Origin: Thermodesulfobacteriota bacterium | Lineage (GTDB): Bacteria; Desulfobacterota_D; UBA1144; Nemesobacterales; Nemesobacteraceae | Direction of reading: 5' to 3' | DNA: 64,000 nt | Assembly: GCA_965200595.1 (NCBI GenBank) | Contig: CBDAUE010000004.1 | Location: 20,796 to 84,795 of the forward strand | Shown here: positions 16,524 to 54,729 of the stretch, piece by piece | Layout: each line of letters starts with the position of its first letter | Position numbering within the stretch: the first letter of the stretch is position 1 | Made by a program: the position numbers and the translations under genes | The notes under the pieces: generated by a model | What the model saw: the letters and a program-made list of their open reading frames with translations, nothing else | What the model was told of the DNA's origin: nothing | Databases searched by the model: none

Positions 16524-16631
16524 TGCTTAGAAAATCCGTATTCAGATGAATAAACCAGCGTGGTATCAGCAAGGACTTCCTGCGGCGGTGTATTGGTCCA
16601 ATCCCACTTGGCGGAGTAAAGATTCATGGAC

Positions 16632-38574: not shown

Positions 38575-38640
38575 CTTCTGCTTTGTATTCCACATTAATG
38601 AGGGCTTTATACCAAGGTAACGTTTGAAGGAATTGTTGCG

Positions 38641-38795
38641 TCCGCACTTGGTCGAAACTGGCAATTCATTTAGGGAGATCGGCGCTGAATCCCGCCTGAA
38701 TCAGACAATTCGGCTTTGAAATTGCCGGAATACCCCCTCCCGCTGTGTGGTTCCAAAAATCTCAACCTCGAAAAACCCCCTACTACGCAAATGCC
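38641..38795 (+). repeat. Copy A of a roughly 160-bp repeated intergenic element (X), just downstream of tRNA-Ser.
   Basis: About 75% identical to the reverse complement of 47322-47486. Conserved blocks: GGCTTTGAAATTGCCGGAATACCCCC and CCAAAAATCTCAA.C..CGAAAAACCC..TACTACGCAAATGC. Confidence 0.6.
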
Positions 38796-38945
38796 TTTCT
38801 TTCTTGCATTTTTGCAGAAATTTTGTTACTCTACATTTGGTAGTTTCAAACCTGAAACGCAACTTTTGGTGTATTGATTTATGTGGGAATTATAGCGATA
38901 ATTAGACAAACTTAGCAGGAGGTCATTTGCTAAGCTAAGGGACTG

Positions 38946-39158
38946 CTATTTCTTCACCTTGATTTTTCTTGAGGCTTGAAGGTCTCTGTCCGCATTGCGG
39001 AAGATTGCCTTTGCCAGTTCCTCCGGCGTTGTGTCTATGCGGGGTATCTTCCGGATCTCGGGTCTGCCTCGGGGATTTTTAATCCGGGATTTGTTCTTTT
39101 TCATGATTCTTACCCAAGGGTGTTTTTCATTCTCAGGGCAATGATAACAGCAATTCAA
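38946..39158 (-). CDS. Small ORF (70 aa) inside the IS1595 3' region. It is translationally coupled (ATGA overlap) to the transposase stop. Possible passenger, or spurious.
   Basis: Basic protein MNCCYHCPENEKHPWVRIMKKNKSRIKNPRGRPEIRKIPRIDTTPEELAKAIF. It lies inside the IS inverted repeats. Confidence 0.25.
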   Translation of the reverse strand: MNCCYHCPENEKHPWVRIMKKNKSRIKNPRGRPEIRKIPRIDTTPEELAKAIFRNADRDLQASRKIKVKK

Positions 39159-39570
39159 GATACAAGCTCTTTATAGGGAAGCTTCTTGCCAACCAACCCC
39201 TTGGCCAACAGCGCCATCTGCTCTATAGTGTCCATCTCTCTTGCATTATGCCTGCCCGCAAACTCCGTAACATAGCGGTCCAGATGTTTCTCGCTCATGT
39301 GATGGTAAGTTCCGTAGTACCCTCTGTTCAAAGCAGCCCAGAAGGATTCCACGCCGTTTACATGGGCTTTTTCTCTTACATACTCTCCCACACTGTGATT
39401 AACCGCTTCATGTCTGTAGTTCTTCTTCCCAAGACCCATATACCCCCTGTTCTGATCGGTGTATACCGTAGAACCTTCTTTCACAGCCTCCTCTACCATG
39501 CGTTGAAGTGTGATGCTCGATACCGGCCTAGTCACTTTTGCCCTGATCTTGCTGCCCCCACGCTCCTTAA
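39155..39570 (-). pseudogene. IS1595-family transposase, C-terminal fragment (DDE_Tnp_IS1595).
   Basis: ...KERGGSKIRAKVTRPVSSITLQRMVEEAVKEGSTVYTDQNRGYMGL...HEAVNHSVGEYVREKAHVNGVESFWAALNRGYYGTYHHMSEKHLDRYVTEFAGRHN is the ISXO2-like conserved core. Confidence 0.8.
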
Positions 39571-40890
39571 AGAAGTGGACCCCAAAAATCAGACAGCACC
39601 TTAAGTGTATTTCCTTGGTATTCTAAAAGAGTATACAGGAGGTACATAATGAAGAGTAAAAGACGTAATCATTCACCGCAGTTCAAGGCAAAGGTAGCGT
39701 TTTTGGCGGTAAAAGGAGACAAGACAGTAGCGGAGCTTGCCCGGCAGTTTGAGGTTCATCCCAATCAGATAAGCATGTGGAAGAAGAAGCAGCTCGGCAA
39801 CGCCGCGGACAAAGTGTTCGGCCAGGGGGCGGGCAGCAAGGCGGCGGGCGAGAGCAAGTACGTAAACCAGCTTGAATCCAAGGTGGGCCAGCTGACGCTG
39901 GAGAACGATTTTTTATCAAAGGCGCTCGGTCGGCAGCGGCGCAAGAAGTTGGTAGTGCGCGGCCGGGCACTTTCTTTGGTAAGGCAGTGCAAACTGCTGG
40001 ATATAAATCGCTCAAATATTTACTACAAACCTGTGGGGGTATCCCCGCAGGACGAAGAGATTGTGAAGAAGATTGACAGGATCTACATTAAGTATCCGTT
40101 TAAGGGTTCAAGAAGGATGGTGTACGCCCTTAAGGCACAGGGCGTACAGGTGGGCAGAAAGCGTGTTATGAGGCTTATGGGGATACGAGGGCTTGCTCCC
40201 GGCCCCCAGACTACAAAGAAAGGGGGAGCAGAGCACAGGATATACCCGTATCTGCTGCGGGGGAAGACTGTAGAGCTTCCCGGGCAGGTATGGGCGGCAG
40301 ACATAACGTATATAGAGATGAGCAGGGGTTTTGTGTATCTGTGTGCGGTAATGGACTGGCACTCGTGCAAGGTTCTTAGCTGGAGAGTGTCTAACACAAT
40401 GGACAGCAGTTTTTGCGTGGAGGCTCTGGAAGAAGCGCTTTACAAGTATGATAAGCCCGAGATATTCAACACCGATCAAGGAAGTCAGTTCACAAGTGAA
40501 GAGTTTACGGGAGTTCTTAAAGACAGAGATATAAAGATAAGCATGGACGGCAAGGGAAGCTGGAGAGACAATGTTTTTGTGGAGAGGCTTTGGAGAAGTG
40601 TTAAGTACGAGGAAGTGTATCTGATGGCATATGAATCCGTTGCCTCGGCAAAGGCAGGTATAGGGAAGTGGATAGATTTTTACAATAAAAAAAGACCACA
40701 TCAGGGGCTTGGAATGAAAACACCGGATGAGGTTTACTATGGTCTTGGGACAGCACAGAAGAATGTGGCTTGAAGCAATGAGACAGACAGAGCAGAGAGT
40801 TTATGGTTTTGGGAGTCTTAAAGATGGTTATGCGTTGGTGGGAATACACTTAAGAAAACAAAAATGCTGTCTAAAAAAGGGGACCACCTC
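39571..40890 (+). mobile_element. IS3-family insertion sequence, copy 3.
   Basis: Same IRs as the other copies. Flanks are TAA and GTC, so there is no target-site duplication. The left flank is the IS1595 fragment and the right flank is the cas9 remnant. Confidence 0.9.
39649..40773 (+). CDS. IS3-family transposase (374 aa, intact).
   Basis: Near-identical to the copy at 9325-10449. Confidence 0.9.
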   Translation: MKSKRRNHSPQFKAKVAFLAVKGDKTVAELARQFEVHPNQISMWKKKQLGNAADKVFGQGAGSKAAGESKYVNQLESKVGQLTLENDFLSKALGRQRRKKLVVRGRALSLVRQCKLLDINRSNIYYKPVGVSPQDEEIVKKIDRIYIKYPFKGSRRMVYALKAQGVQVGRKRVMRLMGIRGLAPGPQTTKKGGAEHRIYPYLLRGKTVELPGQVWAADITYIEMSRGFVYLCAVMDWHSCKVLSWRVSNTMDSSFCVEALEEALYKYDKPEIFNTDQGSQFTSEEFTGVLKDRDIKISMDGKGSWRDNVFVERLWRSVKYEEVYLMAYESVASAKAGIGKWIDFYNKKRPHQGLGMKTPDEVYYGLGTAQKNVA

Positions 40891-41124
40891 TGTCTATGCA
40901 ACCGTCATACAGACGCACTGTTGAATCCTCAAATTCAGCATTGAGTCCGTTAAAAACCACAAATTGTCTACCCGAATAGGTGATCACATAAAAATATATC
41001 TCCCCTGATTTCCAGGGAGCTTTTCTCCAGCAGGGCCTGAATCGAGTCAATGCTCTGGATAGAACCTCTGCTTGCAGCAATTGCGAGAGCCCTAGCGGAG
41101 TAATAGAGTTGACAATCTTCCTAG
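40891..41124 (-). pseudogene. cas9: Degenerate continuation of the cas9 remnant between IS1182 copy A and IS3 copy 3.
   Basis: Minus-strand frames read RAKALGRLSTLLLR(stop) and ...QLYYSARALAIAASRGSIQS. These are co-linear with Cas9 residues about 125-160 (NmeCas9 [27 protein letters not shown]; SpyCas9 LIYLALAHMIKFRG). Low complexity, so this is tentative. Confidence 0.35.
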
Positions 41125-42660
41125 GAGTCTGTCGGGCTTTAGCGGTCATTTAATGTTAAAACAACGGTATCAAGATGTCTGAGAAGGAGAAGACAATGAG
41201 ACGGAGGTTTGTATCAGCAGACCGCAAGACGCCGCAGATGTTTCCGCCTACAATAGAAGAGTATCTGCCCGAAGACCATCTTGCCCGGTTTGTGGTGGAG
41301 ATAGTTGAGCAGCTGGATCTGAGAAGGCTGACGGAAGCGTATTCGGGCAGGGGGTCGGCAGCGTATCATCCGGGAATGAAGGTGGCTCTTCTGTTCTACG
41401 GATACGCGACGGGGACATTCTCTTCCCGGAAGCTTGAGAAGGCAACATATGACAGTGTGGCGTACAGGTATATATGCGCTAACAGCAATCCGGATCATGA
41501 CAGCATAAACAGGTTCCGCAAGAGGTTTGGCAAGGAGCTTGGGGTATTGTTTGTACAGATACTGCAGATAGCGGGACAGATAGGGATGGGCACGGTGAGT
41601 GTGGATGGCACGAAGATAAAGGCTAATGCGAGCAGGCATAAGGCACTGAGCTGGAAGAGGGCAAGGAAGATAGAAAAGCAGCTGAACAAAGAAGTGAAGG
41701 AACTGATGAGACTTGCACGGGAGGCTGACAACTCTAAACTGCCAGAGGATATGAATGTTCCCGAAGAACTTCAGAGACGGGAAGCGAAGCGTGAGATACA
41801 GGAGCGGGCAAAGCACAGGTATGAGCGGGAGTCAGAAGTGTACGGGGAGAAGGTAGAGAAGCGGGAACAGTATGAGAAGCAAAGCGGGAAGAAGGCAGGA
41901 GGGAGCAGACCGAGGGATAAGGATCAGGTGAATCTTGTGGACGGAGATTCGCGGATAATGCCTTCGGGAGGGGGATTTGAGCAGGCATACAACGCTCAGG
42001 GTGCAGTGGATGTGGAGAGCAGACTTATAGTGACCAGGCATGTAACGCAGAACACAAACGACAAGCGTGAGATGGAGCCCGTGCTTGAGCAGTTAAAGGA
42101 GAATGAGCAGAGGCTTGGCAAGGCTGAGAATCTGCTTGCCGACAGCGGATATTACAGTGCAAGCAACGTTAACTTATGTGACAGGGCGGGGATAAAGCCT
42201 TATATATCCAAACGCAGGGAGAAGCACAACAGACCGTTTTGGGAGAGATTCGCACAGTGCAATGAGGAGGAGAAAGAGCCGGCAACACCGGTTGAAGACA
42301 TGCAGAGGAGGCTTGGAACATCCGCAGGCAAAAAGATGTACTCAAAACGCAAGTCAACGATAGAGCCTGTGTTCGGAATAATGAAGCAGGTGATGGGATT
42401 CCGGCAGTTTATGGTGCGGGGGCTTGAAGCTGTGCGCGGAGAGTGGAATCTTGTGTGCATAGGGTACAACCTGAAGAGAATGTATGCGTTGAAGGGCTGA
42501 CAAAGAGGTGAGAGAGCAGAGAATATTGGGGATTTGAGGTAAAAACAGCTCCCCGAAGCTTAGCTGAACCCCCAAAATCAAGGATTTTTGCCGATATGAC
42601 TTTCACCAGCTCTGAATCAGTTGGATTTCCCCTCAATTGTTCGCTAAGAGCGACAGACTC
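41125..42660 (+). mobile_element. IS1182/IS5-like insertion sequence, copy A (about 1.54 kb). It is inserted into cas9.
   Basis: Terminal IRs GAGTCTGTCGGGCTTTAGCG on the left, with GAGTCTGTCGCTCTTAGCG as the reverse complement of the right end. Flanking CTAG at 41121-41124 and CTTG at 42661-42664 form a probable 4-bp target duplication with one mismatch. A second, inverted copy is at 54730-56265. Confidence 0.85.
41175..42500 (+). CDS. IS1182-family (IS5-like) transposase with a DUF772/InsH N-terminal domain.
   Basis: EDHLARFVVEIVEQLDL...AYSGRGSAAYHPGMKVALLFYGYATGTFSSRKLEKATYDSVAYRYICANSNPDHDSINRFRKRF. 441 aa. Confidence 0.85.
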   Translation: MSEKEKTMRRRFVSADRKTPQMFPPTIEEYLPEDHLARFVVEIVEQLDLRRLTEAYSGRGSAAYHPGMKVALLFYGYATGTFSSRKLEKATYDSVAYRYICANSNPDHDSINRFRKRFGKELGVLFVQILQIAGQIGMGTVSVDGTKIKANASRHKALSWKRARKIEKQLNKEVKELMRLAREADNSKLPEDMNVPEELQRREAKREIQERAKHRYERESEVYGEKVEKREQYEKQSGKKAGGSRPRDKDQVNLVDGDSRIMPSGGGFEQAYNAQGAVDVESRLIVTRHVTQNTNDKREMEPVLEQLKENEQRLGKAENLLADSGYYSASNVNLCDRAGIKPYISKRREKHNRPFWERFAQCNEEEKEPATPVEDMQRRLGTSAGKKMYSKRKSTIEPVFGIMKQVMGFRQFMVRGLEAVRGEWNLVCIGYNLKRMYALKG

Positions 42661-43036
42661 CTTGGGCTTTTGCTCTTGCTTTTGCTTTTGCTCTTATAGT
42701 GTAGGGGTCTCCAAGTCTGTTGAGTTCTTTTTCTGGAGAGAGATTGTTTTTAAGTTCTTCAGGAAGAAAACCTTTTAGAATCAGATAATTTCTGATGCGG
42801 CCTTTACGTCTGTTGCGGCGCTGTATCTGCCTCCTCTGAAGTCGCGATTCTCTTCGTTTCCTGTTCTTTGGGGTAGAAGATTTGTCTTCAATGGACCTGA
42901 TAAATATACGGCTTCCGCAGTCAATAAATTTCACGGGTTCTTTATTCTTTTCTTCTATAACGCTCCAGCCAATCGAATTTGTTCCTACGTCAAGTCCTAT
43001 AACATATTCTGGCAATTTACATCCTTTAGTACTCAT
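42661..43036 (-). pseudogene. cas9: Cas9 N-terminal fragment (about 125 codons: RuvC-I motif plus arginine-rich bridge helix), truncated by IS1182 copy A.
   Basis: MSTKGCKLPEYVIGLDVGTNSIGWSVIEEKNKEPVKFIDCGSRIFIRSIEDKSSTPKNRKRRESRLQRRQIQRRNRRKGRIRNYLILKGFL...LGDPYTIRAKA. Compare NmeCas9 [39 protein letters not shown]...ARRLARSVRRLTRRRAHRLLRARRLLKREGVL...NTPWQLRAAAL. RBS GAGGT precedes the ATG at 43034-43036. The last 7 residues of the track ORF are IS sequence. Confidence 0.75.
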
Positions 43037-43039
43037 TTT

Positions 43040-43216
43040 CTGACCTCAGACTCTGAATTCTGGTTGCTTTTTCAGCTATGCTCTTATAGCATAACACAAG
43101 GGGTTTATAAAACTGGCTGAATGTGCCACGAATTTGCTATTCATAACAAGAAGCAAATGCTTCGTAGGCAATCTCTAAGGAGAACCAAAGGCCTCGCATC
43201 GGGGCCTTTTTTTTAG
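43040..43216 (+). ncRNA. Candidate orphan tracrRNA-like small RNA, transcribed divergently from the cas9 start and ending in an intrinsic terminator.
   Basis: A non-coding 335-nt gap lies between the cas9 start and era. Stable hairpins: CAGCTATGCT-CTTAT-AGCATA at 43073-43097, and ATTTGCT...AGCAAAT. The terminator AAAGGCCTCGCATCGGGGCCTTTTTTTT lies at about 43187-43216. The location (upstream of and antisense to cas9) matches the type II-A/II-C tracrRNA position. It is unverified without a repeat array. Confidence 0.35.
43187..43216 (+). terminator. Rho-independent terminator (GC stem, 9-nt loop, T8).
   Basis: AAAGGCC TCGCATCGG GGCCTTT followed by TTTTTTTT. An A-tract upstream makes it potentially bidirectional. 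Confidence 0.6.
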
Positions 43217-43372
43217 TTTTCCTCAGTTCCGGCAAGGTTAGCGTTTTGAGAATCAAGCTTTTATTCGGATAATGAAGATAAAGCTGTTTCGCTCTTCGGT
43301 AGTTTCAAATTTGAAAGCAGGACTTATAAAGAGCAGAATTGTCTGCAAAAAAAAGGGGAGGAGTAGTTTTTC

Positions 43373-44278
43373 ATGCCGGATGAGCACTTAAAAGATAACT
43401 TCAGATCTGGATTTATCTCCGTGATAGGACGGCCCAACGTGGGCAAATCCACCCTTGTGAACTCCATTGTCGGAGAAAAAGTTTCGGCAGTATCAGATAA
43501 GCCGAGCACTACCAGAAACAGAATCTTGGGAGTGAAGACTTTTGATGATTCCCAGCTGGTTTTTCTTGATACCCCGGGTGTCTACAGGGAGAAAAGCAGA
43601 CTTGGAAAATCCATGGCCCGAGCGGTAAACGGTGCTCTCTCAGACGCTGATCTGGTGGCATTTGTTACAGATGTTGAAAAACCTTTCGGAGCGGCTGATG
43701 AATCCATACTGAAAATGCTAAGAAAGCCCTCCTTGTTTGTTGTAAACAAGATCGACAAGATGAAAAAATCAAAACTCCTGTCGATACTTTCGGCTGCCGA
43801 GAGATTTTCCGAGAAGTTCCTCGAGATAGTTCCCATCTCGGCTCTTAACAACGACGGAGTGGAAGAGCTAACGCAGCTTTTAAAAAAACACCTACCCGAA
43901 GGGCCTAAATATTTCCCCGACGACATTTTCACGGATCAGCCTGAAATTTTCTACGTAAGCGAACTCATAAGGGAGAAGGTGTTTAACCTTACGAGAAAGG
44001 AAATTCCTTATAAAGTGGCGGTGGTGGTCTCGGGATTCAGCGAGGATGCGGAACGGAATCTGATCAGGATAAGCGCGGAAATCTATGTTGAAAGAAAAAG
44101 TCATAAGGGGATTCTTATAGGAAAGGGCGGGGCAATGCTAAAGCAGATTGGTTCTGAGGCCAGGGTTGATATTGAAAGGATTCTGGGAGTTAAGCTGTTC
44201 CTTGAGCTTTGGGTTAAGGTTAAAGAGAACTGGACTCAGAGCGATTTCCTGATAAATGAATTCGGTTACGGAAACTGA
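43373..44278 (+). CDS. era: GTPase Era.
   Basis: G1 GRPNVGKST, G3 DTPG, G4 NKID, and a C-terminal KH domain (GKGGAMLKQIG). Confidence 0.95.
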   Translation: MPDEHLKDNFRSGFISVIGRPNVGKSTLVNSIVGEKVSAVSDKPSTTRNRILGVKTFDDSQLVFLDTPGVYREKSRLGKSMARAVNGALSDADLVAFVTDVEKPFGAADESILKMLRKPSLFVVNKIDKMKKSKLLSILSAAERFSEKFLEIVPISALNNDGVEELTQLLKKHLPEGPKYFPDDIFTDQPEIFYVSELIREKVFNLTRKEIPYKVAVVVSGFSEDAERNLIRISAEIYVERKSHKGILIGKGGAMLKQIGSEARVDIERILGVKLFLELWVKVKENWTQSDFLINEFGYGN

Positions 44279-44291
44279 ACCGCAAGAGTCT

Positions 44292-45077
44292 TTATTCTCC
44301 CTTAAAAAAAGCTTTTCTTTTCTCAAGAAAAGCTTTTTTCCCTTCCCTGGAGTCGCTGCTTTGCCTCACATCGGCGAAGGCAGACTTTATGAGTTTTTCA
44401 TCCTCTTCTGATAGTCGCCTTCCTTGTTCCCAGATGTTTATCATTTTTTTTATCGAGATCATGGAAAGCGGGGCGTTTGTGCTTATTCCGTCGGCAAGCC
44501 CGTAGGTGAATTCTTCAAGGCTTTGTCTTTTCACAATATGGTCGACGAGCCCTTTTTCCAAAGCTCTTTGGGCGTTAACCGGGTTTCCGGTGAGAAAAAG
44601 CTCTCTGGTGAAGCCGGGACCTACCAGGTTGAGGAACTGCTTTATTCCGCTGTAGTGATAAGTGACTCCGAGCTTTACGGGCGGGATTGCAAGTTTTACG
44701 TCATCGGCGCATACTCTCAGATCGCAAGTAACTGCGAGTTCAAGTCCGGCCCCGAAGGCATGACCGTTTATCATTGCTATTACGGGAAGAGGGTAGGATT
44801 TGACTGCACGCATTGCTTCGGTCAGGGGATGACTGTTTTCTATTGCAGTTTCTTCTTCGGATATTGCGGCTATATCGTATCCTGAGCAGAAAGCTCTTTT
44901 ACCGCTTCCAGTTATAACAACGCACCTGATTTCAGTTGTTTTTCCCAGCCGTAAAAATTCCTCGGTTAAAGATTTTAGAATTTCGGGGGTGAGGGAATTT
45001 CTTTTCCGAGGTCGATTAATAGTAAGGGTGCAGACTGAATCTTCGGTTTTTACGAGAATCTCTTCGCTCTTGATCAT
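44292..45077 (-). CDS. Enoyl-CoA hydratase/isomerase (crotonase) family protein.
   Basis: Crotonase fold: INGHAFGAGLELAVTCDLRV...; C-terminal KAFLEKRKAFFKGE. Confidence 0.85.
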   Translation of the reverse strand: MIKSEEILVKTEDSVCTLTINRPRKRNSLTPEILKSLTEEFLRLGKTTEIRCVVITGSGKRAFCSGYDIAAISEEETAIENSHPLTEAMRAVKSYPLPVIAMINGHAFGAGLELAVTCDLRVCADDVKLAIPPVKLGVTYHYSGIKQFLNLVGPGFTRELFLTGNPVNAQRALEKGLVDHIVKRQSLEEFTYGLADGISTNAPLSMISIKKMINIWEQGRRLSEEDEKLIKSAFADVRQSSDSREGKKAFLEKRKAFFKGE

Positions 45078-45421
45078 AGAGATATTATTATATATTTCAT
45101 CAGTTTAGATATTAATACTATGCCTTCGGCATAGCAATTGGAAAGGGAAAACAGTGGAAGATGATGGTGAGGGTTCTTTAGATTTTCGGAAGATCTCATC
45201 TTCCCGAGCATCGCGGCCGCCTAGGGTCTGGGAGAAGTTAACGGTAAGAGTTAATACACGGCTTAAGCAGATTATGAAAAAACAGAATTTCGTGAGAAAC
45301 CTGAAGAAGTAGGAAATTTTGGATCCGCAACGGACGGAGGATAACAATTGGCGCTCTAGGCGTCCATGTCCGACTGCGGTAGAAGACCCGAAGTTGTTCT
45401 GACTTTCAGGCGGAGGCATTT

Positions 45422-45895
45422 ATGACGAAACGAAAAACCCTTTATCTGGCTAATCCCTACGGTTTTTCTGCACAACAGCGCGAAGGACCTCTGGCGGTTC
45501 TTGTCGGGGTCCTGGAATCGGTGGGAGCTGAAGTATGGGAGCCGTTTTCCCGGAATAATCAGATTGATAAGGCGGTTGCCGGTTGGGCCTACCGAGTTGG
45601 ACAGTCGGATCTTAGGGATGTGCGTGAGGCCGATGGGTTGTTTGCGGTTGTAAACGGATGTCCGCCTGATGAAGGAGTTATGGTGGAACTGGGAATGGCT
45701 CTTGCCTGGGATAAGCCTGTATTTCTGTTCAGGGACGACTTCCGCAGATGCACTGACAGTGAAGTCTATCCGCTTAATCTGATGCTGTTTGCAGGCATGC
45801 CTGAGTATGGCTGGGAAGCTTACTTGTATGGTTCCGTGGAAGAACTTTCCGATCCTGACAAAGCACTTGTCAGGTGGCTCAAAGACGCAGAATGA
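45422..45895 (+). CDS. Nucleoside 2-deoxyribosyltransferase-like protein (157 aa).
   Basis: N-terminal LYLANPYGFS and the acidic catalytic region GVMVELGMA are typical of the NDT-like Rossmann family. Inference. Confidence 0.5.
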   Translation: MTKRKTLYLANPYGFSAQQREGPLAVLVGVLESVGAEVWEPFSRNNQIDKAVAGWAYRVGQSDLRDVREADGLFAVVNGCPPDEGVMVELGMALAWDKPVFLFRDDFRRCTDSEVYPLNLMLFAGMPEYGWEAYLYGSVEELSDPDKALVRWLKDAE

Positions 45896-46008
45896 CTTCT
45901 GTTCTGTATTGAGCATTGGGCCATTCCAGAATTTACCGGTCTGCTGCTCTTAAGTATTCTGGCTATCCTGCCTGCTTTTACGGAATTACGGAACGGACAG
46001 ATGGGGAG

Positions 46009-47232
46009 TTATTGCTCCTTATTACTTCGCATCTTCCACCAAATTACCCCTAATATGAAAAGTAAAACAATACATACGGTAATGACTCCACGTATAATTC
46101 TGCTTTTCGGTTCCGTTAGGTACGCCTCTCCTTCCTCTGGGTAAAAACCCGAGCCAAGAACATACATATCATCACCGAGTGTTACCTTCTTAACATAGCC
46201 TACCTTGAATGAAGTTCCCTTTGCCTTGCCGACTTCATCAATTTCATCTCCCTCAATCGCCGGATTGTCCCACAGATAATAAACAAAACCTCCCCCCTGC
46301 TCTGCTACTCTGAGCATTTCCTTGCCAACCTCAACGCCGTTTTCGTCTACTAAATTATAAGTGGGTGTTCTGAGGAGGCTCGGATCGTTACCATTAAACA
46401 CTACTAGACCCTGCCTTGTGAAGGCGAAGAGATAAATTTCATTGTATTTCCAAGTTTTGTTTTTGTTGCTTGCCGTCAGCAGGTTTGTGATGTCCATTTT
46501 GCCCTGAGAGATTTCATAAACGTGACTTAAGAATTCGGCAGCTTTCTCCACAAAATTCTTCAGAGTGTCGGGATCTTTTACCGAATCTGCTCTCACTTCG
46601 GGCGCGTATCTTTTCACGATTTCAGGCACGGTCGGTACCACTTCATCGTGATGAAGACCCCCGATCAGGACAAGTTCAATTCCAAGCGCAGAGACTGAAC
46701 AGTTGATTGCGTAAGCCCACCTGCGCAAGGTGTTGCTGTCTGATGGATCATTTGGGTCATCCCAGTAATAATCAACAAATCCTCCCCGTTTATTTGCTTG
46801 AGCGGCGTTGATAAGTTTCTGCACTACGTCGGTTCCTTTTGCGTCCCGCCAAGTGCTTATGTCGGTGCCGGTTGCCGATTCATAATATCCGTGAGCTACG
46901 GATCTGCCTTGTTTGTCAACTAAAATCAGGTAGTTGGAACCGGACTTCCAGTCCTCATGAAAATATATTTCTCCCAGTATCTTCTGCCATAGATCAAGGC
47001 TCTGTTCGTGCGGATCCTGAAGCTCCCAGTGCGCTTTTGCGTGCAGTACAAATTCCCTTATGGCACTTCGGCTGTTTCTTGCTTTGTCGGCCGTTACAGT
47101 TTCTTTACTGGCATTTGCATGCTTGCCGTGGGCCGAGGCCGAATGCATGTGAAAAAAAACGCATATGAATACCAGTACGCAAACAAAGACTCCCTTTAAT
47201 ACCGAGATTTTAAAATTATGACTTTTCAGCAT
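46009..47232 (-). CDS. Membrane-anchored periplasmic double Cache-like ligand-binding protein with no output domain. Start set at MLKSHNF; the track ORF extends to 47307.
   Basis: Two Cache-like modules each carrying GGFVDYYWDDPNDP / GGGFVYYLWDNPAI. N-terminal signal/TM, C-terminal TM helix ITVCIVLLFILGVIWW, then stop. Confidence 0.55.
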   Translation of the reverse strand: MLKSHNFKISVLKGVFVCVLVFICVFFHMHSASAHGKHANASKETVTADKARNSRSAIREFVLHAKAHWELQDPHEQSLDLWQKILGEIYFHEDWKSGSNYLILVDKQGRSVAHGYYESATGTDISTWRDAKGTDVVQKLINAAQANKRGGFVDYYWDDPNDPSDSNTLRRWAYAINCSVSALGIELVLIGGLHHDEVVPTVPEIVKRYAPEVRADSVKDPDTLKNFVEKAAEFLSHVYEISQGKMDITNLLTASNKNKTWKYNEIYLFAFTRQGLVVFNGNDPSLLRTPTYNLVDENGVEVGKEMLRVAEQGGGFVYYLWDNPAIEGDEIDEVGKAKGTSFKVGYVKKVTLGDDMYVLGSGFYPEEGEAYLTEPKSRIIRGVITVCIVLLFILGVIWWKMRSNKEQ

Positions 47233-47321
47233 GGTGTTTGTGGCAACTCTAGCGAATCGGATTAAAGAAAAATAAAGTAATAACGTACCGGTTTTTTCTA
47301 AAGTCACAACAGGTCAAGCGA

Positions 47322-47486
47322 AGCATTTGCGTAGTAAAGGGTTTTTCGGGGTTTGAGATTTTTGGAATAACGTAGCGGGGGGGGGTATTCCGGCAATTTC
47401 AAAGCCGGATAGCCTGATCCAGGCCGATTCAGACACAACTCAGCGTCGATTCACCTGAGAATCGCCATTTCCGACCAAGCGCGGAT
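47322..47486 (-). repeat. Copy B of the roughly 160-bp X element, in the 5' region of the double-Cache gene.
   Basis: The reverse complement aligns with 38641-38795, including the GGCTTTGAAATTGCCGGAATACCCCC hairpin block and the ...TACTACGCAAATGC end. Confidence 0.6.
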
Positions 47487-47661
47487 ACAGCAGTCCCTTC
47501 AAGGTTAATTTCTCTTTAATTTTTCTGTGAACAATTAAGAGACGCTAACTAGTATCGGCGTAAAGGTATCTCATAAAAAGTTGCGTTTCGAACTTGAAAC
47601 CACGGATAAATTCACCGCAATCAGCGGGTTCTGGCGAGTCCGATCTCTGCTATCGCTTCTT

Positions 47662-48273
47662 TTACTCTTGACCGACCCCCAGGTTCAGTAGCCCGTTTAT
47701 TCCGAGTTTAGTATCCGCATGTGCCCTCAAAACAATTTCCGCTGCGGCTCTTGCATCTTCTCCGGCATCGTGGTGGCGGAAGTTAATACCGAGATCGCAG
47801 GCAATATTCCCGAGATTGTAACCCCTAAGAGCGTATTTGTCCGGCCAAGCGCGTCGCGCTACCTGCGCACTGTCAATCCAGATTTCATAACGAAGAGATT
47901 TTCCGCATTCTTCAAATGCTTTTGAGACTGCCCTGCGGTCAAAAAATGTATGGCTTATGACGATTCCTTCCAGATATAGTGCGATTCTGTCGCATATATC
48001 TTCAAACCGGGGGCAGCCTTTTACCATGTTATGGTCTATGCCGTGTATGGCGACATTGTGAGGATCAAAAAAATCATGCGGATCAATAAATTGAACCCAG
48101 ACCTGTTTTATTTCCGCCTCTCTGACCACGGCGATTCCCACCTGACAGATACTTGAAACGTTTGAATTGGCGGTCTCGACGTCAACGGCGACAAAATCCA
48201 GATTTTTAATCGTAGGGAGATCGATTTTTCCGTTTTGTCCGCCTAGTGTTTCCGTCTTTCTGCCCTTTTTCAT
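47662..48273 (-). CDS. DEDDh 3'-5' exonuclease (DnaQ / Pol III epsilon-like), stand-alone.
   Basis: Exo I FVAVDVETAN, Exo II HNVAIHGIDH region, Exo III HHDAGEDARAAAEI. Confidence 0.75.
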   Translation of the reverse strand: MKKGRKTETLGGQNGKIDLPTIKNLDFVAVDVETANSNVSSICQVGIAVVREAEIKQVWVQFIDPHDFFDPHNVAIHGIDHNMVKGCPRFEDICDRIALYLEGIVISHTFFDRRAVSKAFEECGKSLRYEIWIDSAQVARRAWPDKYALRGYNLGNIACDLGINFRHHDAGEDARAAAEIVLRAHADTKLGINGLLNLGVGQE

Positions 48274-48403
48274 TATCTTCTGTATTATGAACCATAATCG
48301 GTATTTTTCAGCAATGTTTCAGACGTTAAGGCGGCTTCGGGCTTTAAACTCAGATTATATTGTTTATAATTTCCTAAATTAGAGATTTTTCCGGAGACAT
48401 AAA

Positions 48404-48907
48404 GTGCCGTTATACGAATATGAATGCGACAGTTGCATGGAGAGTTACAATGCGGATATAGACAATTTGGTTGCCAAGCTTACGAAGACAAACGCAAAGA
48501 AGGTTTTCAAGCAGAACCCTAATTTCTGTTACGCTGAAGTAACAAGTGACAAAAACGGAAAACTGTTTTTTGAACTGGGAGAGAAAGGGGTAGGCGGTGC
48601 GAGGAGGTTTCGTTACAAGCTTGACAACGGGAAGGTTCTTTACCTTGAGCTTAAGGATTTTCGTTTCAACCACCTTGTGTATGGGGATGACGACCAGGAT
48701 GAAGTCAGATGCCCTCTCTGCGACGGTTCGGATACTGTGAGAAGGGTTTTTTCCACCTTCAAGGCCATATTTGACGACAAGAGCAAAAGAGCTCCGGGTC
48801 CGGGGGATGAACTTAGATGGCATCTTGAATACAAGCAGCAAAAGGACGAAGAAATAGCGAGCGACTGGGTCGGGCAGGATCACCTGAACCAGTATTTCAA
48901 TAGATAG
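48404..48907 (+). CDS. FmdB-like split zinc-ribbon protein with an internal insertion of about 85 aa (167 aa). GTG start.
   Basis: MPLYEYECDSC ... RCPLCDGSDTVRRVFS. This is the FmdB-family zinc-ribbon pattern interrupted by an extra domain. Confidence 0.5.
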   Translation: MPLYEYECDSCMESYNADIDNLVAKLTKTNAKKVFKQNPNFCYAEVTSDKNGKLFFELGEKGVGGARRFRYKLDNGKVLYLELKDFRFNHLVYGDDDQDEVRCPLCDGSDTVRRVFSTFKAIFDDKSKRAPGPGDELRWHLEYKQQKDEEIASDWVGQDHLNQYFNR

Positions 48908-48916
48908 GAGACGCAA

Positions 48917-49420
48917 ATGCCCCTCTATGAATTTGAATGTGCCAAATGCAGAGATAATGTTGAGAGATCACTCAAGGCTCTTGAGAAAAAGCGGGACAAG
49001 AAAACCGTAAAAAACCTTGTGGAGAAATATGAAAATATTTACGCAATAGAAATTATTGACCTTGAGTCCGAAAAGATAGTTGCAAGGCACGGAAGGAAGG
49101 GGAAAGACTCCGTGTTTAACGATTTCTATCTTAATGACGGAACTCTTCTTGCGCTTTTCAATATGCGGAACTACAGGTTCTCCGAGCTTATATACGAAGA
49201 GGGAGACGAGAAAAACGTAAAGTGTTACTGCGGGGAGAAAAAGAAAGTGGAGAAAGTTATATCGACTTTTGCTTTTACCAGGGACCTTTCAACCGATATG
49301 CCGAAGCCCGATCTTTCGAACCTGCCGCCTTCGGTAAGAAACAGAACTTTCGTAGGAGACTATATAGAGGAAAAGGACAGGCCTAAGAAGCACAGGCCCA
49401 CCATGGGTAGAAAAGAGTAA
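48917..49420 (+). CDS. Paralogue of the preceding zinc-ribbon protein (167 aa).
   Basis: MPLYEFECAKC ... KCYCGEKKKVEKVISTF. Same length and architecture as its neighbour, but low identity. Confidence 0.5.
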   Translation: MPLYEFECAKCRDNVERSLKALEKKRDKKTVKNLVEKYENIYAIEIIDLESEKIVARHGRKGKDSVFNDFYLNDGTLLALFNMRNYRFSELIYEEGDEKNVKCYCGEKKKVEKVISTFAFTRDLSTDMPKPDLSNLPPSVRNRTFVGDYIEEKDRPKKHRPTMGRKE

Positions 49421-49455
49421 GGGCCGTCTAGTCCTCCCTATCCCTTCCCATGCTG

Positions 49456-50145
49456 CTATTTTTTCTGTGCGTATTCTTCCTTGCGCCTGCCGAACCTTCT
49501 CTCAAGTTCATCCGATATATCCTGAGGGCTGAGGCCCGCTTCACATAGAAGCACCATGGAATGAAACCACAAATCGGTAAGTTCGTAGACGAGTTCGTCT
49601 TTATCTCCGTTCTTGGCGGCTATTACCACTTCGCCCGCCTCTTCTCCGATTTTTTTAAGTATTCTGTCAAGCCCGCCCTTCATAAGGGCGCTTACGTAGG
49701 AACCTTCCGTAGGGTTGCGTTTCCTGTTTTCTATTACGGAGAATACTTTTGTGAGTGAAGATTCCTCAAACAGGGGGGCAGCATTTTCTTGCATGTCTGC
49801 CGATCTGTAAAAGCATGTCGGCTCTCCGGTGTGACAGGCCACTCCGGTCTGCTCTACTGTTATCAGCACCGTATCTGAGTCGCAGTCAATGAAGATTTCT
49901 TTTACATCCTGAAAGTGGCCTGATTCCTCCCCTTTGTTCCAGATTTTTCTTCTTGATCTGCTCCAGAAATGGGTTCTTCCGGTTTTTACTGTCATTTCAA
50001 GAGCCTCTTTGTTTGCATATGCGAGCATAAGTACCTGCCCGCTTGAAGCTTCCTGCACTATCACGGGCAGAAGACCCTGCTCGTTGAACTTGAGTTTTTC
50101 CATGTCCATATCCACCGGGATTCCATTTGGCTGAAAGTACGTCAA
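49456..50145 (-). CDS. hisI: Bifunctional phosphoribosyl-AMP cyclohydrolase / phosphoribosyl-ATP pyrophosphatase.
   Basis: HisI block [26 protein letters not shown]...[17 protein letters not shown]...CHTGEPTCF, followed by the HisE region. Confidence 0.9.
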
Positions 50146-50280
50146 GATAATAATTGCAAAGCTTTGGTTGTCAAAAAGCAGGCGGGGTGGAGAAACGGGT
50201 AGTACATTTGAGCTTGGGTCCGGTATTTTTCCGTCCTGACAGTTTTTCCCTTAACTGCTGCTGATTTTATATGTACAATT

Positions 50281-52050
50281 GTGAGACTGCTTTGCACGGG
50301 AGGAATTGAATCTTTGTCTTTAATAAAATATTTTGCTAATGTCTCAACCGCACTGCTTTTTGGCTTTTTCCTTGTCGCTGTTGGTTTTTCGCTCTCACTT
50401 TCTTGCAGCTCGGACTCGGAGGAGCGCGTGAGTTTTGATCATGGAGTCGCAAGCGGCGACCCTCTGGAGAACAGGGTTATCCTCTGGACGAGAGTCACTC
50501 CGCAGGAATCTCAGGAAACAGTCAGTGTAAAAGTCGAAGTTGCTTCGGATAAGGAGTTTGGAACCATCGTTTACAGCTCCGCTAAGCAGGCTACAGCCGA
50601 GAGCGACTACACCGTGAAAATTGATGCCGAGGGGCTTTCGCCCGGGACGGTTTACTATTACCGGTTCCGCTCAGGCGAGGCTGAGTCCGTTATCGGCCGT
50701 ACCAAGACCTTGCCCCGGGGCGATGTGGATTTGGTCAGGCTGGCAGTGGTTTCATGTGCAAACTATCCTCTCTCCCATGGTGGTTACTTTAACGTTTACG
50801 GCCATGCGGCGGAGGCAGATGTCGATGCCGTGGTTCATCTGGGCGATTATATCTACGAGTACGGCAGGGCCCCGGGTTCAGGAGACGACAATCCCGAAGC
50901 AGCAGAAAGGGATTTTCCGGAAGGCAGCGGGGAGATCATAACGCTTGATGACTACAGGGGTCGCTACGCTCTATACAGAACCGATCCGCAGCTTCAGGCC
51001 ATTCACGCCGCGCATCCGTTTATCGCTGTCTGGGATGATCACGAGGTCGCAGATAACGCTTATGCTGGTGGTGCACTGAACCATAATGAGGGTGAAGGCA
51101 GTTTCGATGCCAGAAAGCAGGCTGCGCTTCAGGCCTATTACGAGTGGATGCCGATTCGTCCCGCAGAAGACAATGATTCCCAACGTATCTACGGCAGTTT
51201 TTCCTTCGGAAATCTGGTTGACCTTTTTATGCTCGACACCCGACTTGCCGGACGGGAAAAACAACTTGCTTACGAAGATTATTTCGACCAAACCGGTTTT
51301 AACATTTTGTGTTTCACTCAGGATGTCGGTTCTGTGGACCGAACGCTACTTGGTTCCGAGCAGCTGCTTTGGCTTCAGGAAAACCTTGTCGGCTCAACCT
51401 CTGTCTGGCAGGTTCTGGGCCAGCAGGTGCTTATGGGCAGAATGAACGTTCCCGCTGAACTGCTTTCCCATTTTGCCAATCCGACACCGCAGGTAGTGGA
51501 TATTGTTGATGAGCTGGCTGGGATTAAAGAGAGGGTGCTTCAAGGTGATCCTTCCGTGACTCAAACGGAGCGGGGGCGTGTAAGCTTCGGGCTTCCGTAT
51601 AACCTTGATGCTTGGGACGGTTACCCCGCAGAGAGGGAAGCGGTGCTCGGAACAGCTTACAGTGAGGATAAAAATCTTGTGGTTCTTTCCGGAGATTCGC
51701 ATAACGGATGGGCGAACAACCTAAAAGATATAAATGGCAACCAGGTAGGCGTTGAGTTTGCCGGTCCGGCTGTGTCCTCAGAAGGGCTTGCAGTTATTCT
51801 CGGACTTGGATCCGATCCAGAAAGGTCTGGAGAACTTGCCCGAAGTCTGGAAGTGCTGGTCGACGACCTTGTCTACTCTAACATATATGACTACGGATAT
51901 ATGATAGTAAGTTTTACCCCGGAAAAGGCTCAGTCTCAATGGATATACGTGGATACGATAAAGCAGCCGGAATTCATGGAACTTAAGTCAAGCGCAAAGA
52001 CGCTCAGTGTGCTTGCGGGAGAAGGGAACCGCAGCGTTGTTTCTGACTGA
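50281..52050 (+). CDS. PhoD-like alkaline phosphatase / phosphodiesterase.
   Basis: FIAVWDDHEVADN and PhoD metallophosphatase blocks. N-terminal signal / lipobox-like LSLSCSS. Confidence 0.85.
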   Translation: MRLLCTGGIESLSLIKYFANVSTALLFGFFLVAVGFSLSLSCSSDSEERVSFDHGVASGDPLENRVILWTRVTPQESQETVSVKVEVASDKEFGTIVYSSAKQATAESDYTVKIDAEGLSPGTVYYYRFRSGEAESVIGRTKTLPRGDVDLVRLAVVSCANYPLSHGGYFNVYGHAAEADVDAVVHLGDYIYEYGRAPGSGDDNPEAAERDFPEGSGEIITLDDYRGRYALYRTDPQLQAIHAAHPFIAVWDDHEVADNAYAGGALNHNEGEGSFDARKQAALQAYYEWMPIRPAEDNDSQRIYGSFSFGNLVDLFMLDTRLAGREKQLAYEDYFDQTGFNILCFTQDVGSVDRTLLGSEQLLWLQENLVGSTSVWQVLGQQVLMGRMNVPAELLSHFANPTPQVVDIVDELAGIKERVLQGDPSVTQTERGRVSFGLPYNLDAWDGYPAEREAVLGTAYSEDKNLVVLSGDSHNGWANNLKDINGNQVGVEFAGPAVSSEGLAVILGLGSDPERSGELARSLEVLVDDLVYSNIYDYGYMIVSFTPEKAQSQWIYVDTIKQPEFMELKSSAKTLSVLAGEGNRSVVSD

Positions 52051-52487
52051 TTCCGCGTATCGTGCGCCTGCGATAAAACCTTTAATGAAGCTGTGAAGCG
52101 CGATTAATTAATTGAGCCTGTTTATAAGTAGAAGCCGCAACAGGTGGATCATTGCCAAGTAATACCTGATTCAGGGCTTTGAGGGCAAGGCATTGTCATT
52201 GTCTCAGTCTGCTTCAGTTTTCCATAGTTCTGTCAGCATCTTTCTGTGACAGTATTGCAAAGTCCATTTCCTTGGGGAAGTACTGCCTTACAAGCCCGGT
52301 TGCGTTCAGTCTGACCGAAGCCTCGACAAGCGAAACAAAAAAGTGTGAACGGATGGCTGACAAGCTGTTCGGGAAGGACTCGGGGCTTGCCGGGCGGTGT
52401 AAATACTTCACAGCGGGCAGGGAACTTGAAACCACGAATTGTTACACTGATACGTGTTTTAAAGGAAAAAAGAGGAAGTTTATATTT

Positions 52488-53808
52488 AGAAGTGGACCCC
52501 AAAAATCAGACAGCATCTTAAGTGTATTTCCTTGGTATTCTAAAAGAGTATACAGGAGGTACATAATGAAGAGTAAAAGACGTAATCATTCACCGCAGTT
52601 CAAGGCAAAGGTAGCGTTTTTGGCGGTAAAAGGAGACAAGACAGTAGCGGAGCTTGCCCGGCAGTTTGAGGTTCATCCCAATCAGATAAGCATGTGGAAG
52701 AAGAAGCAGCTCGGCAACGCCGCGGACAAAGTGTTCGGCCAGGGGGCGGGCAGCAAGGCGGCGGGCGAGAGCAAGTACGTAAACCAGCTTGAATCCAAGG
52801 TGGGCCAGCTGACGCTGGAGAACGATTTTTTATCAAAGGCGCTCGGTCGGCAGCGGCGCAAGAAGTTGGTAGTGCGCGGCCGGGCACTTTCTTTGGTAAG
52901 GCAGTGCAAACTGCTGGATATAAATCGCTCAAATATTTACTACAAACCTGTGGGGGTATCCCCGCAGGACGAAGAGATTATGAAGAAGATTGACAGGATC
53001 TACATTAAGTATCCGTTTAAGGGTTCAAGAAGGATGGTGTACGCCCTTAAGGCACAGGGCGTACAGGTGGGCAGAAAGCGTGTTATGAGGCTTATGGGGA
53101 TACGAGGGCTTGCTCCCGGCCCCCAGACTACAAAGAAAGGGGGAGCAGAGCACAGGATATACCCGTATCTGCTGCGGGGGAAGACTGTAGAGCTTCCCGG
53201 GCAGGTATGGGCGGCAGACATAACGTATATAGAGATGAGCAGGGGTTTTGTGTATCTGTGTGCGGTAATGGACTGGCACTCGTGCAAGGTTCTTAGCTGG
53301 AGAGTGTCTAACACAATGGACAGCAGTTTTTGCGTGGAGGCTCTGGAAGAAGCGCTTTACAAGTATGATAAGCCCGAGATATTCAACACCGATCAAGGAA
53401 GCCAGTTCACAAGTGAAGAGTTTACGGGAGTTCTTAAAGACAGAGATATAAAGATAAGCATGGACGGCAAGGGAAGCTGGAGAGACAATGTTTTTGTGGA
53501 GAGGCTTTGGAGAAGTGTTAAGTACGAGGAAGTGTATCTGATGGCATATGAATCCGTTGCCTCGGCAAAGGCAGGTATAGGGAAGTGGATAGATTTTTAC
53601 AATGAAAAAAGACCACATCAGGGGCTTGGAATGAAAACACCGGATGAGGTTTACTATGGTCTTGGGACAGCACAGAAGAATGTGGCTTGAAGCAATGAGA
53701 CAAACAGAGCAGAGAGTTTATGGTTTTGGGAGTCTTAAAGATGGTTATGCGTTGGTGGGAATACACTTAAGAAAACAAAAATGCTGTCTAAAAAAGGGGA
53801 CCACCTCT
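52488..53808 (+). mobile_element. IS3-family insertion sequence, copy 4.
   Basis: Same IRs as the other copies. Flanks are TTT and ATC, so there is no target duplication. The right flank is the N-terminal half of the IS1595 element. Confidence 0.9.
52566..53690 (+). CDS. IS3-family transposase (374 aa, intact). The track ORF is extended upstream to 52179 through the non-IS flank.
   Basis: Identical N-terminus MKSKRRNHSPQF, with ATG at 52566 after GGAGG. Confidence 0.9.
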   Translation: MKSKRRNHSPQFKAKVAFLAVKGDKTVAELARQFEVHPNQISMWKKKQLGNAADKVFGQGAGSKAAGESKYVNQLESKVGQLTLENDFLSKALGRQRRKKLVVRGRALSLVRQCKLLDINRSNIYYKPVGVSPQDEEIMKKIDRIYIKYPFKGSRRMVYALKAQGVQVGRKRVMRLMGIRGLAPGPQTTKKGGAEHRIYPYLLRGKTVELPGQVWAADITYIEMSRGFVYLCAVMDWHSCKVLSWRVSNTMDSSFCVEALEEALYKYDKPEIFNTDQGSQFTSEEFTGVLKDRDIKISMDGKGSWRDNVFVERLWRSVKYEEVYLMAYESVASAKAGIGKWIDFYNEKRPHQGLGMKTPDEVYYGLGTAQKNVA

Positions 53809-54354
53809 ATCTTGTCTTGAGTCCCCGCCCCCATCATCCTGGGTTTTTTCGACCTGTGCATATTGCCATACTTCCCGCCCATATAGGTTTCGTCCACCTC
53901 CACCGCTCCGCCCAGCTTCTCATCCCTTATCCATCCCTGCCTTATCTTCTCCCTGCCTTATCTTCTGAGCTAAAGTCCATGCCGTTGACCGAGCTATCCC
54001 CAAATCCCTGTGAAGCTTCATGCTGGACACGCCTTTAAGATTTGTTGTCATCAAGTACAAAGCCACCACCCACTTGCGCAATGGCGTCTTGCTGCTTCTC
54101 ATTACAGTTCCAGTCCTCACACTGAAATACTTTCGGCAATCCTTGCAGTGATAAGGCATTTTATGCTTCGCCCCGGCAGTACGAGTCCCTGCGCAGTGCG
54201 GACAATGCCTCTGCCCGTTCGGCCAGCGCTGATCCTCAAACCACTTTGTCGCAGATCCCTCATCGGGAAACATCTCAAGCAGTTCCATAACCCCTATTCC
54301 TTTTCTGTGAAACCTTCCAGGGGCCTTGTACTTCCTCTCAGACATTCCTAACAC
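53809..54354 (-). pseudogene. IS1595-family transposase, N-terminal fragment (Zn-ribbon, HTH, start of the DDE domain).
   Basis: GQRHCPHCAGTRTAGAKHKMPYHCKDCRKYFSVRTGTVM...KWVVALYLMTTNLKGVSSMKLHRDLGIARSTAWTL. Downstream, in a second frame, ...VEVDETYMGGKYGNMHRSKKPRMMGAGTQDK runs up to the IS3 junction. Confidence 0.75.
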
Positions 54355-54725: not shown

Positions 54726-54729
54726 CTAG

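Follow-up and report, generated by a model that had tools for sequence, protein, structure and literature searches.

The window analysed here, a stretch of 64,000 nucleotides (nt) from contig CBDAUE010000004.1 of the Thermodesulfobacteriota assembly GCA_965200595.1, carries the 5′ end of a cas9 gene, a divergently oriented gene for a trans-activating CRISPR RNA (tracrRNA) and a number of insertion sequences (IS), all in the neighbourhood of the GTPase gene era. They concern the remains of a CRISPR-Cas9 locus (CRISPR, clustered regularly interspaced short palindromic repeats) in a member of the Dadabacteria, which a taxonomy look-up places as a class within the Thermodesulfobacteriota. The features at the centre of the locus are the following.

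42683 to 43036, minus strand: cas9 remnant, codons 1 to 118, with the RuvC-I motif (IGLDVGTNSIGWS), the arginine-rich bridge helix and the beginning of REC
42644 to 43036, minus strand: present-day open reading frame (ORF) of 130 amino acids, made up of the 118 Cas9 codons, KARAKAQ from a hexamer run, and GVCRS and the stop codon from the IS1182 terminal repeat
42667 to 42682, no strand: junction filler of 16 nt inside a GCTTTT run of 4.5 units at 42666 to 42692 (Tandem Repeats Finder, alignment)
41121 to 42666, plus strand: IS1182-family element, copy a, with transposase at 41175 to 42500, termini CTAGGAGTCTGTCG... and ...CGACAGACTCCTTG(GG), and flanks CTAG and CTTG
40892 to 41120, no strand: orphan DNA of 229 bp that separates IS3 copy B from IS1182 copy a, with no recognisable cas9
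43064 to 43092, plus strand: putative tracrRNA promoter, −35 TTGCTT (43064 to 43069), 17-nt spacer, −10 TAGCAT (43087 to 43092)
43099 to 43214, plus strand: tracrRNA gene, its 5′ end placed from the promoter
43104 to 43147, plus strand: tracrRNA anti-repeat, ..AACTGGCTGAATGTGCCACGAATTTGCTATTCATAAC
43150 to 43163 and 43165 to 43188, plus strand: tracrRNA hairpins forming a conserved scaffold
43187 to 43209, with T-tract at 43207 to 43214, plus strand: intrinsic terminator of the tracrRNA gene (terminator scan)

The minus-strand ORF from 43036 to 42644 opens as a Cas9 N-terminus, with the RuvC-I motif followed by the bridge helix. An earlier note on this DNA, made from the letters alone, had recognised it as such, and profile, homology and structure searches agree. 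Residues 11 to 118 match positions 1 to 100 of the 1070 positions of the NCBIfam Cas9 profile TIGR01865 with an E value of 2.8e-24 and 85.5 bits, which falls below the full-length cut-off of 100 bits with only that part of the profile being present. Five Cas9 models of PADLOC match as well (best E value 1.2e-17), and all 61 solved structures retrieved by a search of the PDB are Cas9 proteins; the top matches, to which the stub aligns at residues ~2 to 95, we take to be II-C chains of the Geo/Nme type, with the II-A protein SpCas9 after them. When 1.84 billion representative proteins were searched exhaustively with HMMER, 2154 matched at E ≤ 0.001. In the best 150 of these the aligned part always falls on the N-terminal end of the target or close to it, many targets being ~1000 to 1100 amino acids long, and the top match is an intact Cas9 of 1042 amino acids (P0126; 73% identity, query residues 7 to 119 against residues 5 to 117). 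By contrast, the NCBIfam profiles for IscB (E value 0.0035) and RuvC (0.006) reach just 16.5 bits each with the same ORF, so that Cas9 leads both by about 70 bits and the question raised in the earlier note, whether the fragment might rather be an IscB or RuvC protein, is settled in favour of Cas9.

The stub is 73 to 82% identical to intact type II-C Cas9 proteins of ~1040 amino acids from related Dadabacteria, and the closest full-length Cas9s found by the HMMER search and a clade alignment are 73 to 79% identical. The catalytic aspartate motif IGLD.G..S.GW is kept, D16 included, and each of the 40 residues that are invariant in the clade alignment is present. What survives amounts to 11% of cas9: the HNH, RuvC-II and RuvC-III domains, the REC lobe and the domain interacting with the protospacer-adjacent motif are all missing from an ORF that stops after 130 amino acids. 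The domain requirements of Cas9 for interference are established. Because the stub lacks these domains and the window contains no source of CRISPR RNA (crRNA), the remnant is, by these requirements, incapable of both interference and adaptation.

DNA homology to five relatives (L001, L004, L008, L016 and L018) is lost at 42683/42684, right after codon 118 (..IRAKA); up to this point the stub aligns without gaps to nt 1 to 353 of the cas9 gene of L018 at 81.9% DNA identity. The estimate of ~125 surviving codons in the earlier note was thus correct in that only the 5′ end is left and slightly too high in number. Next to the break lies an IS1182 element, which the note had described as IS1182-like and 1.54 kb long. 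Its assignment rests on a DDE transposase profile (NF033551, E value 1.6e-104, above the family cut-off), terminal inverted repeats of about 21 bp and the presence of a near-identical second copy: copies a and b (54724 to 56269, inverted) are both 1546 bp long and differ at two positions in the left terminal repeat and one in the right end. The ORF takes its final five codons and its stop from the terminal repeat. It does not enter this repeat directly from cas9, as the earlier note had it, but through the 16-nt hexamer filler, which partly re-duplicates cas9 codons 115 to 118 and has no homology to the cas9 genes of relatives. Flanks are CTAG/CTTG for copy a and CTAG/CTAG for copy b, which leaves the target duplication ambiguous. 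The two inverted copies flank 12 kb, and joining the left flank of copy a to the flank of copy b on the 54723 side would give the palindrome TCTTCC-TAG-GGAAGA, a hint that the segment between the copies may be inverted.

The same junctions recur at 100% identity in L002, an independent contig of long reads from a different sample, and a short-read contig found in five samples (L003) ends inside IS1182; an assembly chimera is therefore ruled out.

Between cas9 and era, a gene of ~116 nt on the plus strand, divergent from cas9 (~43099 to 43214), is an apparently intact tracrRNA gene, with an anti-repeat, a structured 3′ scaffold and a terminator beside cas9. It is the best-preserved part of the remnant and was overlooked in the earlier note. 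A block of ~115 nt is near-identical in the window and L001 while the Cas9 N-termini of the two share just 76% identity, and the block stands upstream of cas9 in all seven loci compared (the window, L001, L013, L004, L016, L005 and L008). Among these seven sequences 94.9% of the cells are paired and six pairs show compensatory changes, a result equalled in none of 500 shuffles and abolished when pairing partners are shifted. The anti-repeats of L001 and L004 pair with their own 36-nt repeat (GTTGTGAATAGCGGGGCTTTCTCAGTCAGTTAAATT) at −39 to −42 kcal/mol, as against about −13 kcal/mol for shuffled anti-repeats; that of the window, whose own repeat is lost, was tested on the repeats of relatives and pairs with them at −34 to −37 kcal/mol. 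The scaffold has no window-specific change in the seven-locus comparison. Promoter and expression are predictions, the promoter being read from an alignment and from the L016 sequence: −10 boxes stand at the same spot in relatives (TATAAT in L004, TAAAAT in L001, TAGTAT in L016), the window's TAGCAT being weaker than those of L004 and L001 and near that of L016, and the promoter scores below the scan threshold. A scan of positions 42600 to 43450 with Rfam matched no family, tracrRNA included; evidently, the known II-A-based models miss this II-C tracrRNA.

The intact layout of the locus is known from relatives, where it reads era, tracrRNA (divergent), cas9 (~1040 amino acids), cas1, cas2 and an array of 36-nt repeats. 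L013 (OZ219878.1), a Thermodesulfobacteriota metagenome-assembled genome of 2.01 Mb, has it in the order era-tracrRNA-cas9-cas1-cas2-array with a Cas9 of 1042 amino acids, and L001, L004, L016 and L018 carry similar CRISPR loci that are intact or near-intact. Across this clade, whose source names include Candidatus Dadabacteria and Candidatus Mycalebacterium, Cas9 is 1033 to 1050 amino acids long; the arrays of L001, L004, L013 and L016 hold 17 (L001) to about 24 repeats of the pattern GTTGTG[AG]ATAGCGGGG...CAGTCAGTTAAA. Only cas1 and cas2 accompany cas9 in these loci, with neither csn2 (typical of II-A) nor cas4 (II-B), and the solved structures nearest to the relatives' Cas9 are chains of ~1082 to 1092 amino acids (E values about 1e-68 to 1e-71), which we take to be II-C Cas9s of the Nme/Geo type. 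Based on gene content, Cas9 size and nearest structures, the subtype is judged to be II-C; this judgement is made on the intact loci of relatives, the window being devoid of these genes, and it answers the question of II-A, II-B or II-C affinity posed in the earlier note.

Several peculiarities of the relatives' loci deserve mention. The L013 array is split (12446 to 13209 and 15960 to 16718) by an insertion of ~2.7 kb at 13210 to 15959 with ORFs of 219 and 606 amino acids. Read in crRNA sense, the 36-nt repeats of L001 (16295 to 17385), L004 (~13230 to 14360) and L016 (~4700 to 5540) end in a −10-like TAAAT or TAAAGT, and the arrays of these three loci would be transcribed opposite to cas9. 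Such repeat ends resemble the repeat-embedded promoters reportedly present in Neisseria II-C arrays. Apparent splits of cas9 in L004 (8786 to 11923) and L016 (287 to 3402) are single-base frameshifts in low-coverage long-read contigs (7x for L004), and the one in L018 (5217 to 8301) is a 10-N scaffold gap; all three are probably artefacts. In L001 (OZ242322.1), an IS of ~1.8 kb (10359 to 12190) cleanly interrupts cas9 in an otherwise complete II-C locus. This element has terminal repeats GGTGCACGACAAATTTGTGGG, produces a 10-bp duplication (CTTGATGAAG) at codons 119 to 122, and carries DUF6788 and UPF0236/ISLre2-like ORFs and a broken transposase; it is unrelated to IS1182.

The remaining components of such a locus are absent from the window, as the earlier note had reported for cas1, cas2 and the array. 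With the C-terminal part of the relatives' Cas9 and with Cas1 and Cas2 of L001 and L004 as queries, tblastn produced no match at E < 0.01 in the 64 kb; Tandem Repeats Finder detected no CRISPR array there, and neither the relatives' 36-nt repeats nor the repeat predicted from the window's own anti-repeat had a match. The array-distal neighbour found in relatives, a TraT-like gene, is likewise missing from the window. Homologues of the relatives' Cas9 were also screened for the missing 3′ part of cas9 from the window's lineage, and three candidates of 943, 766 and 972 amino acids emerged. The two that were inspected come from other lineages (P0138/L016, with a frameshift in a low-coverage contig; P0153/L018, with a 10-N gap). 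The third, P0149 (972 amino acids), is encoded on a contig of 2.28 Mb whose ManC is only 74% identical to that of the window.

How the locus came to be truncated depends on what adjoins it on the far side of IS1182. The earlier note saw a type II locus decaying in place between a tRNA-Ser gene and era, with IS1182 inserted into cas9, degraded Cas9-like codons continuing for ~230 bp beyond the element and a later deletion adjacent to IS3. The juxtaposition of stub and IS1182 fits this course of events, and so does the distal CTAG, which is followed by GAAGA as expected from ..GATGAAGAA.. in the relatives' cas9, a likeness of 5 nt only. The 229 bp themselves nevertheless bear no resemblance to cas9. 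When compared by blastx with the closest Cas9s they gave chance-level matches only, none of their six frames had a credible match among NCBIfam profiles (best E value 0.2, to an unrelated family), and blastn found no match in any of the fetched loci of relatives or elsewhere in the window. Local DNA alignments to the expected cas9 continuation in L004, L008, L001 and L018 were equalled or surpassed by 245, 82, 248 and 133 of 500 shuffles, respectively, and alignments of all three protein frames to Cas9 residues 113 to 230 stayed at shuffle level. For the final 222 nt of the stub the scores were 255 and 89, the highest scores among the shuffles being 31 and 28. This contrast is decisive because the sequences on both sides of IS1182 would have left selection at the same time. 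The Cas9-like residues reported beyond the element are thus not borne out. Two other identities of the 229 bp were considered and dropped: a metagenome scan with the longest frame gave a pattern-forced match of 40 amino acids to a Gfo/Idh/MocA-like ORF, which we take as chance, and the missing N-terminal part of an IS1595 transposase is ruled out, as that part sits at 53809 to 54466.

Further evidence on the history of the region comes from the elements and genes that surround it.

39571 to 40891, plus strand: IS3-family copy B, 1321 bp, with transposase ORF at 39649 to 40773, lacking a target duplication and bordered on the left by the C-terminal half of an IS1595 element
52488 to 53808, plus strand: IS3-family copy C, in direct orientation with copy B; the two bracket 40892 to 52487
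38881 to 39570, minus strand: 3′ half of an IS1595-family element, with terminal repeat at 38881 to 38910 and the C-terminal part of the transposase at 39155 to 39570 (profile positions ~105 to 215)
53809 to 54466, minus strand: 5′ half of an IS1595-family element, with the N-terminal part of the transposase (zinc ribbon, profile positions 1 to 84, one frameshift) and terminal repeat at 54436 to 54466
43373 to 44278, plus strand: era GTPase gene, conserved neighbour of the relatives' tracrRNA-cas9 locus and synteny anchor

IS3 (transposase profile NF033516, E value 1.8e-91; terminal repeats present) occurs four times in the window, at 9247 to 10567, 16633 to 17953 (minus strand), 39571 to 40891 and 52488 to 53808. 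Only copy A (9247 to 10567) has a 3-bp target duplication (AAC/AAC); copies B, C and D have none, which is consistent with later recombination. Copy B does end at 40891 without a duplication, its flanks being TAA and GTC, as had been observed before. The adjacent deletion deduced from this in the earlier note fits less well than an exchange of flanks, since copies B and C adjoin complementary halves of one IS1595, the 5′ half abutting the right end of copy C. The terminal repeats of the halves match each other in inverted orientation, and when joined the halves cover positions 44 to 215 of the IS1595 model. Between the two IS3 copies sits a block of 11.6 kb (40892 to 52487) that extends from PhoD through era and holds the tracrRNA gene, the cas9 stub and IS1182. 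An IS1595 split in this manner and bracketed by IS3 indicates IS3-mediated translocation or flank exchange and not a simple adjacent deletion.

Synteny is broken in this region as well. In L011 and L012, colinearity with the window extends from 27322 to 38576/38587, just past tRNA-Ser, after which both continue with genes absent from the window; on the other side it runs from 50999 down to 42683 in L001 and from 48441 down to 42684 in L004. These synteny blocks are separated by 4.1 kb made up of mobile elements, the 229-bp orphan and, next to tRNA-Ser, 293 bp of uncharacterised sequence. The complete chromosome OZ219878.1 has its ManC/tRNA-Ser block near 120 kb and its cas9 near 700 kb, so that tRNA-Ser and era, between which the earlier note expected an intact locus in related strains, are about 580 kb apart and not neighbours in relatives. 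Taken with the nature of the 229 bp and with the IS1595 halves at the flanks of IS3, this makes decay in place very unlikely, even though IS3 copy B does lack a target duplication. What stands of the earlier scenario is a type II remnant associated with IS1182 and IS3; what falls is the in-place course and the cas9 sequence at the far flank.

Since the stub lies on an IS3-bracketed segment that moved or swapped its flanks, it might also be a duplicated cas9 fragment on an IS-bounded segment, with a complete and functional II-C locus elsewhere in the organism. The low ratio of nonsynonymous to synonymous substitution (dN/dS) of the stub and the intact tracrRNA gene would suit a recent copy too. 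Against this, the 11.6-kb block contains the single-copy housekeeping genes era, hisIE and phoD in the order of the relatives' CRISPR neighbourhood, which speaks for the native locus and not for a copy. A word-indexed search of 5.8 billion clustered proteins with the stub found only five short proteins (86 to 185 amino acids, 73 to 100% identical) and no full-length Cas9, so that the duplicate with a near-identical N-terminus that the earlier note had asked about is not in that collection; the 73 to 79% identity of the best full-length proteins and the lack of a truncated C-terminal part of this lineage among the relatives' homologues point the same way. We consider a duplicated fragment quite improbable.

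Compared with relatives, the stub has a dN/dS of 0.07 to 0.13, intact genes ranging from 0.04 to 0.17 if the barely diverged pair L013–L001 (0.34) is left out; dS is saturated. Taken together, the low dN/dS, the 40 invariant residues and the unchanged tracrRNA scaffold suggest that the truncation is recent relative to the split from the sampled relatives. It is tempting to read the same three observations as signs that the tracrRNA and the 130-residue peptide with RuvC-I and bridge helix are retained as a functional mini-module, for example an RNA-binding regulator, the more so as the truncated arrangement is present in several samples and as the unrelated IS in L001 cuts cas9 within ~3 nt of the position at which the stub breaks off, leaving an N-terminal ORF of 133 amino acids. 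However, RuvC-I is one strand-set of the split RuvC fold and, according to established knowledge of Cas9 structure, unable to fold alone. Of 16 positions that are near-invariant in the clade alignment, the stub alone deviates at three (G32K, L81I, P101L), and with dS saturated its dN/dS mostly reflects the time before truncation. The L001 insertion, a clean IS with a 10-bp duplication beside an otherwise complete locus, suggests a recent knock-out, and the N-terminal Cas9 fragments in the HMMER match list are broadly spread in length, with no peak near ~130 amino acids. For tracrRNA, we know of no role independent of Cas9. A mini-module is therefore extremely doubtful. The probability that two sites fall so close together in a 3.1-kb gene is, post hoc, roughly 0.3%, and we treat the coincidence as chance or local target preference. 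Since an ISLre2-like element has independently inserted at this spot in L001, one may speculate that codons ~118 to 122 are a hotspot of repeated cas9 knock-out by different mobile elements; we give very little credence to this idea or to a stub and tracrRNA kept for function.

Overall, the best explanation, and one in which we have considerable confidence, is that a type II-C CRISPR-Cas9 locus of marine Dadabacteria has here been reduced to a non-functional stump, and not by one local deletion. IS3-mediated translocation or flank exchange would have placed the stub-bearing block into an IS1595 downstream of tRNA-Ser, and at least one further deletion or recombination associated with IS1182 would have taken away what else there was of cas9, together with cas1, cas2 and the array, by removal or by displacement. 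The additional event is invoked because the far flank of IS1182 is not cas9. Directly shown are what the parts are, where exactly cas9 breaks off, that the other components are missing from the 64 kb, that IS1595 is split and that synteny is broken. The order of these events, the recency of the truncation and the choice between deletion and relocation of the missing part are matters that we infer.

Some observations sit uneasily with this explanation. The IS1595 halves make an imperfect pair: a clean target duplication or a restored frame across them was looked for and not found, no 3-bp duplication being present, the halves being out of frame and about 14 profile positions missing, from which it follows that more than one event took place; strictly, the halves might also stem from two different IS1595 copies. 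The flanks of IS1182 copy a (CTAG, CTTG) form an imperfect duplication, and with the 16-nt filler the cas9/IS1182 junction is no textbook clean insertion. The −10 box of the tracrRNA gene is weaker than that of some relatives, its expression being a prediction. Finally, our view is that of a 64-kb window; elsewhere in the genome there could be another, intact locus, or the 3′ part of cas9 could have been moved there along with cas1, cas2 and the array.

The genome is IS-dense and repeatedly rearranged, and the neighbourhood offers additional observations of this kind. The split IS1595 with its two direct IS3 copies resembles a composite transposon or a translocation. Beyond their right ends, IS3 copies B and D are alike in six of seven bases (GTCTATG, GTCCATG). 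Two mutually inverted copies of an element of ~180 nt, 77 to 84% identical, lie just downstream of tRNA-Ser (38624 to 38794) and upstream of a dCache sensor gene (47323 to 47502); the element could be a miniature inverted-repeat transposable element or a duplicated regulatory region. The 3′ remnant of IS1595 contains, just downstream of the transposase stop, a lysine- and arginine-rich ORF of 70 amino acids (38946 to 39158, minus strand) without a match in Pfam.

Our analysis documents the loss of Cas9 immunity through insertion-sequence activity in an IS-rich lineage of Dadabacteria and illustrates that a tracrRNA can outlive its effector. The stub opens no new biological question. The relatives, by contrast, provide a defined set of tracrRNA, repeat and Cas9 for an uncharacterised clade of compact (~1040 amino acids) II-C Cas9s, and it is these intact relatives, not the stub, that are useful material for tool mining. 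A note of caution concerns annotation: the short ‘hypothetical proteins’ P0001 to P0005 (86 to 185 amino acids) in the databases are N-terminal fragments of Cas9.

In comparison with known systems, the intact loci of the relatives share gene content (cas9-cas1-cas2), Cas9 size (~1050 to 1090 amino acids in the known systems), a tracrRNA gene beside cas9 and 36-nt repeats with the II-C systems of the Neisseria meningitidis and Geobacillus type; their repeat begins with GTTGTG and ends in the −10-like TAAAT. Unlike these systems, the window keeps only the tracrRNA gene and 11% of cas9, with no cas1, cas2 or array, and its tracrRNA gene is divergent, with the putative promoter just upstream of the cas9 start. 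An N-terminal RuvC-I motif and an arginine-rich bridge helix are also common to the stub and to IscB, the OMEGA nucleases of ~400 to 500 amino acids related to IS200/IS605 elements. The stub differs from these in its scores (85.5 bits for Cas9 and 16.5 for IscB), in its conserved Cas9 synteny and in having no omega-RNA or TnpA context. Decayed type II systems are well known from other bacteria: at least eight of 21 type II systems of Mollicutes are predicted to be inactivated or degraded (PMC6882279), and in Flavobacterium psychrophilum truncated Fp1Cas9 alleles and an IS256 within the II-C array have been described (PMC10309648). The phenomenon is the same here, namely type II immunity lost via IS activity and deletion, and the stump is an ordinary case of immune-system loss, of a known kind and with a new example in Dadabacteria. 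It differs from the earlier cases in its host, in being unusually minimal and in lying not in an intact neighbourhood but at an IS-mediated synteny breakpoint with nested IS1595, IS3 and IS1182 elements; the surviving tracrRNA and the nested-IS rearrangement are the modest points that it adds to them.

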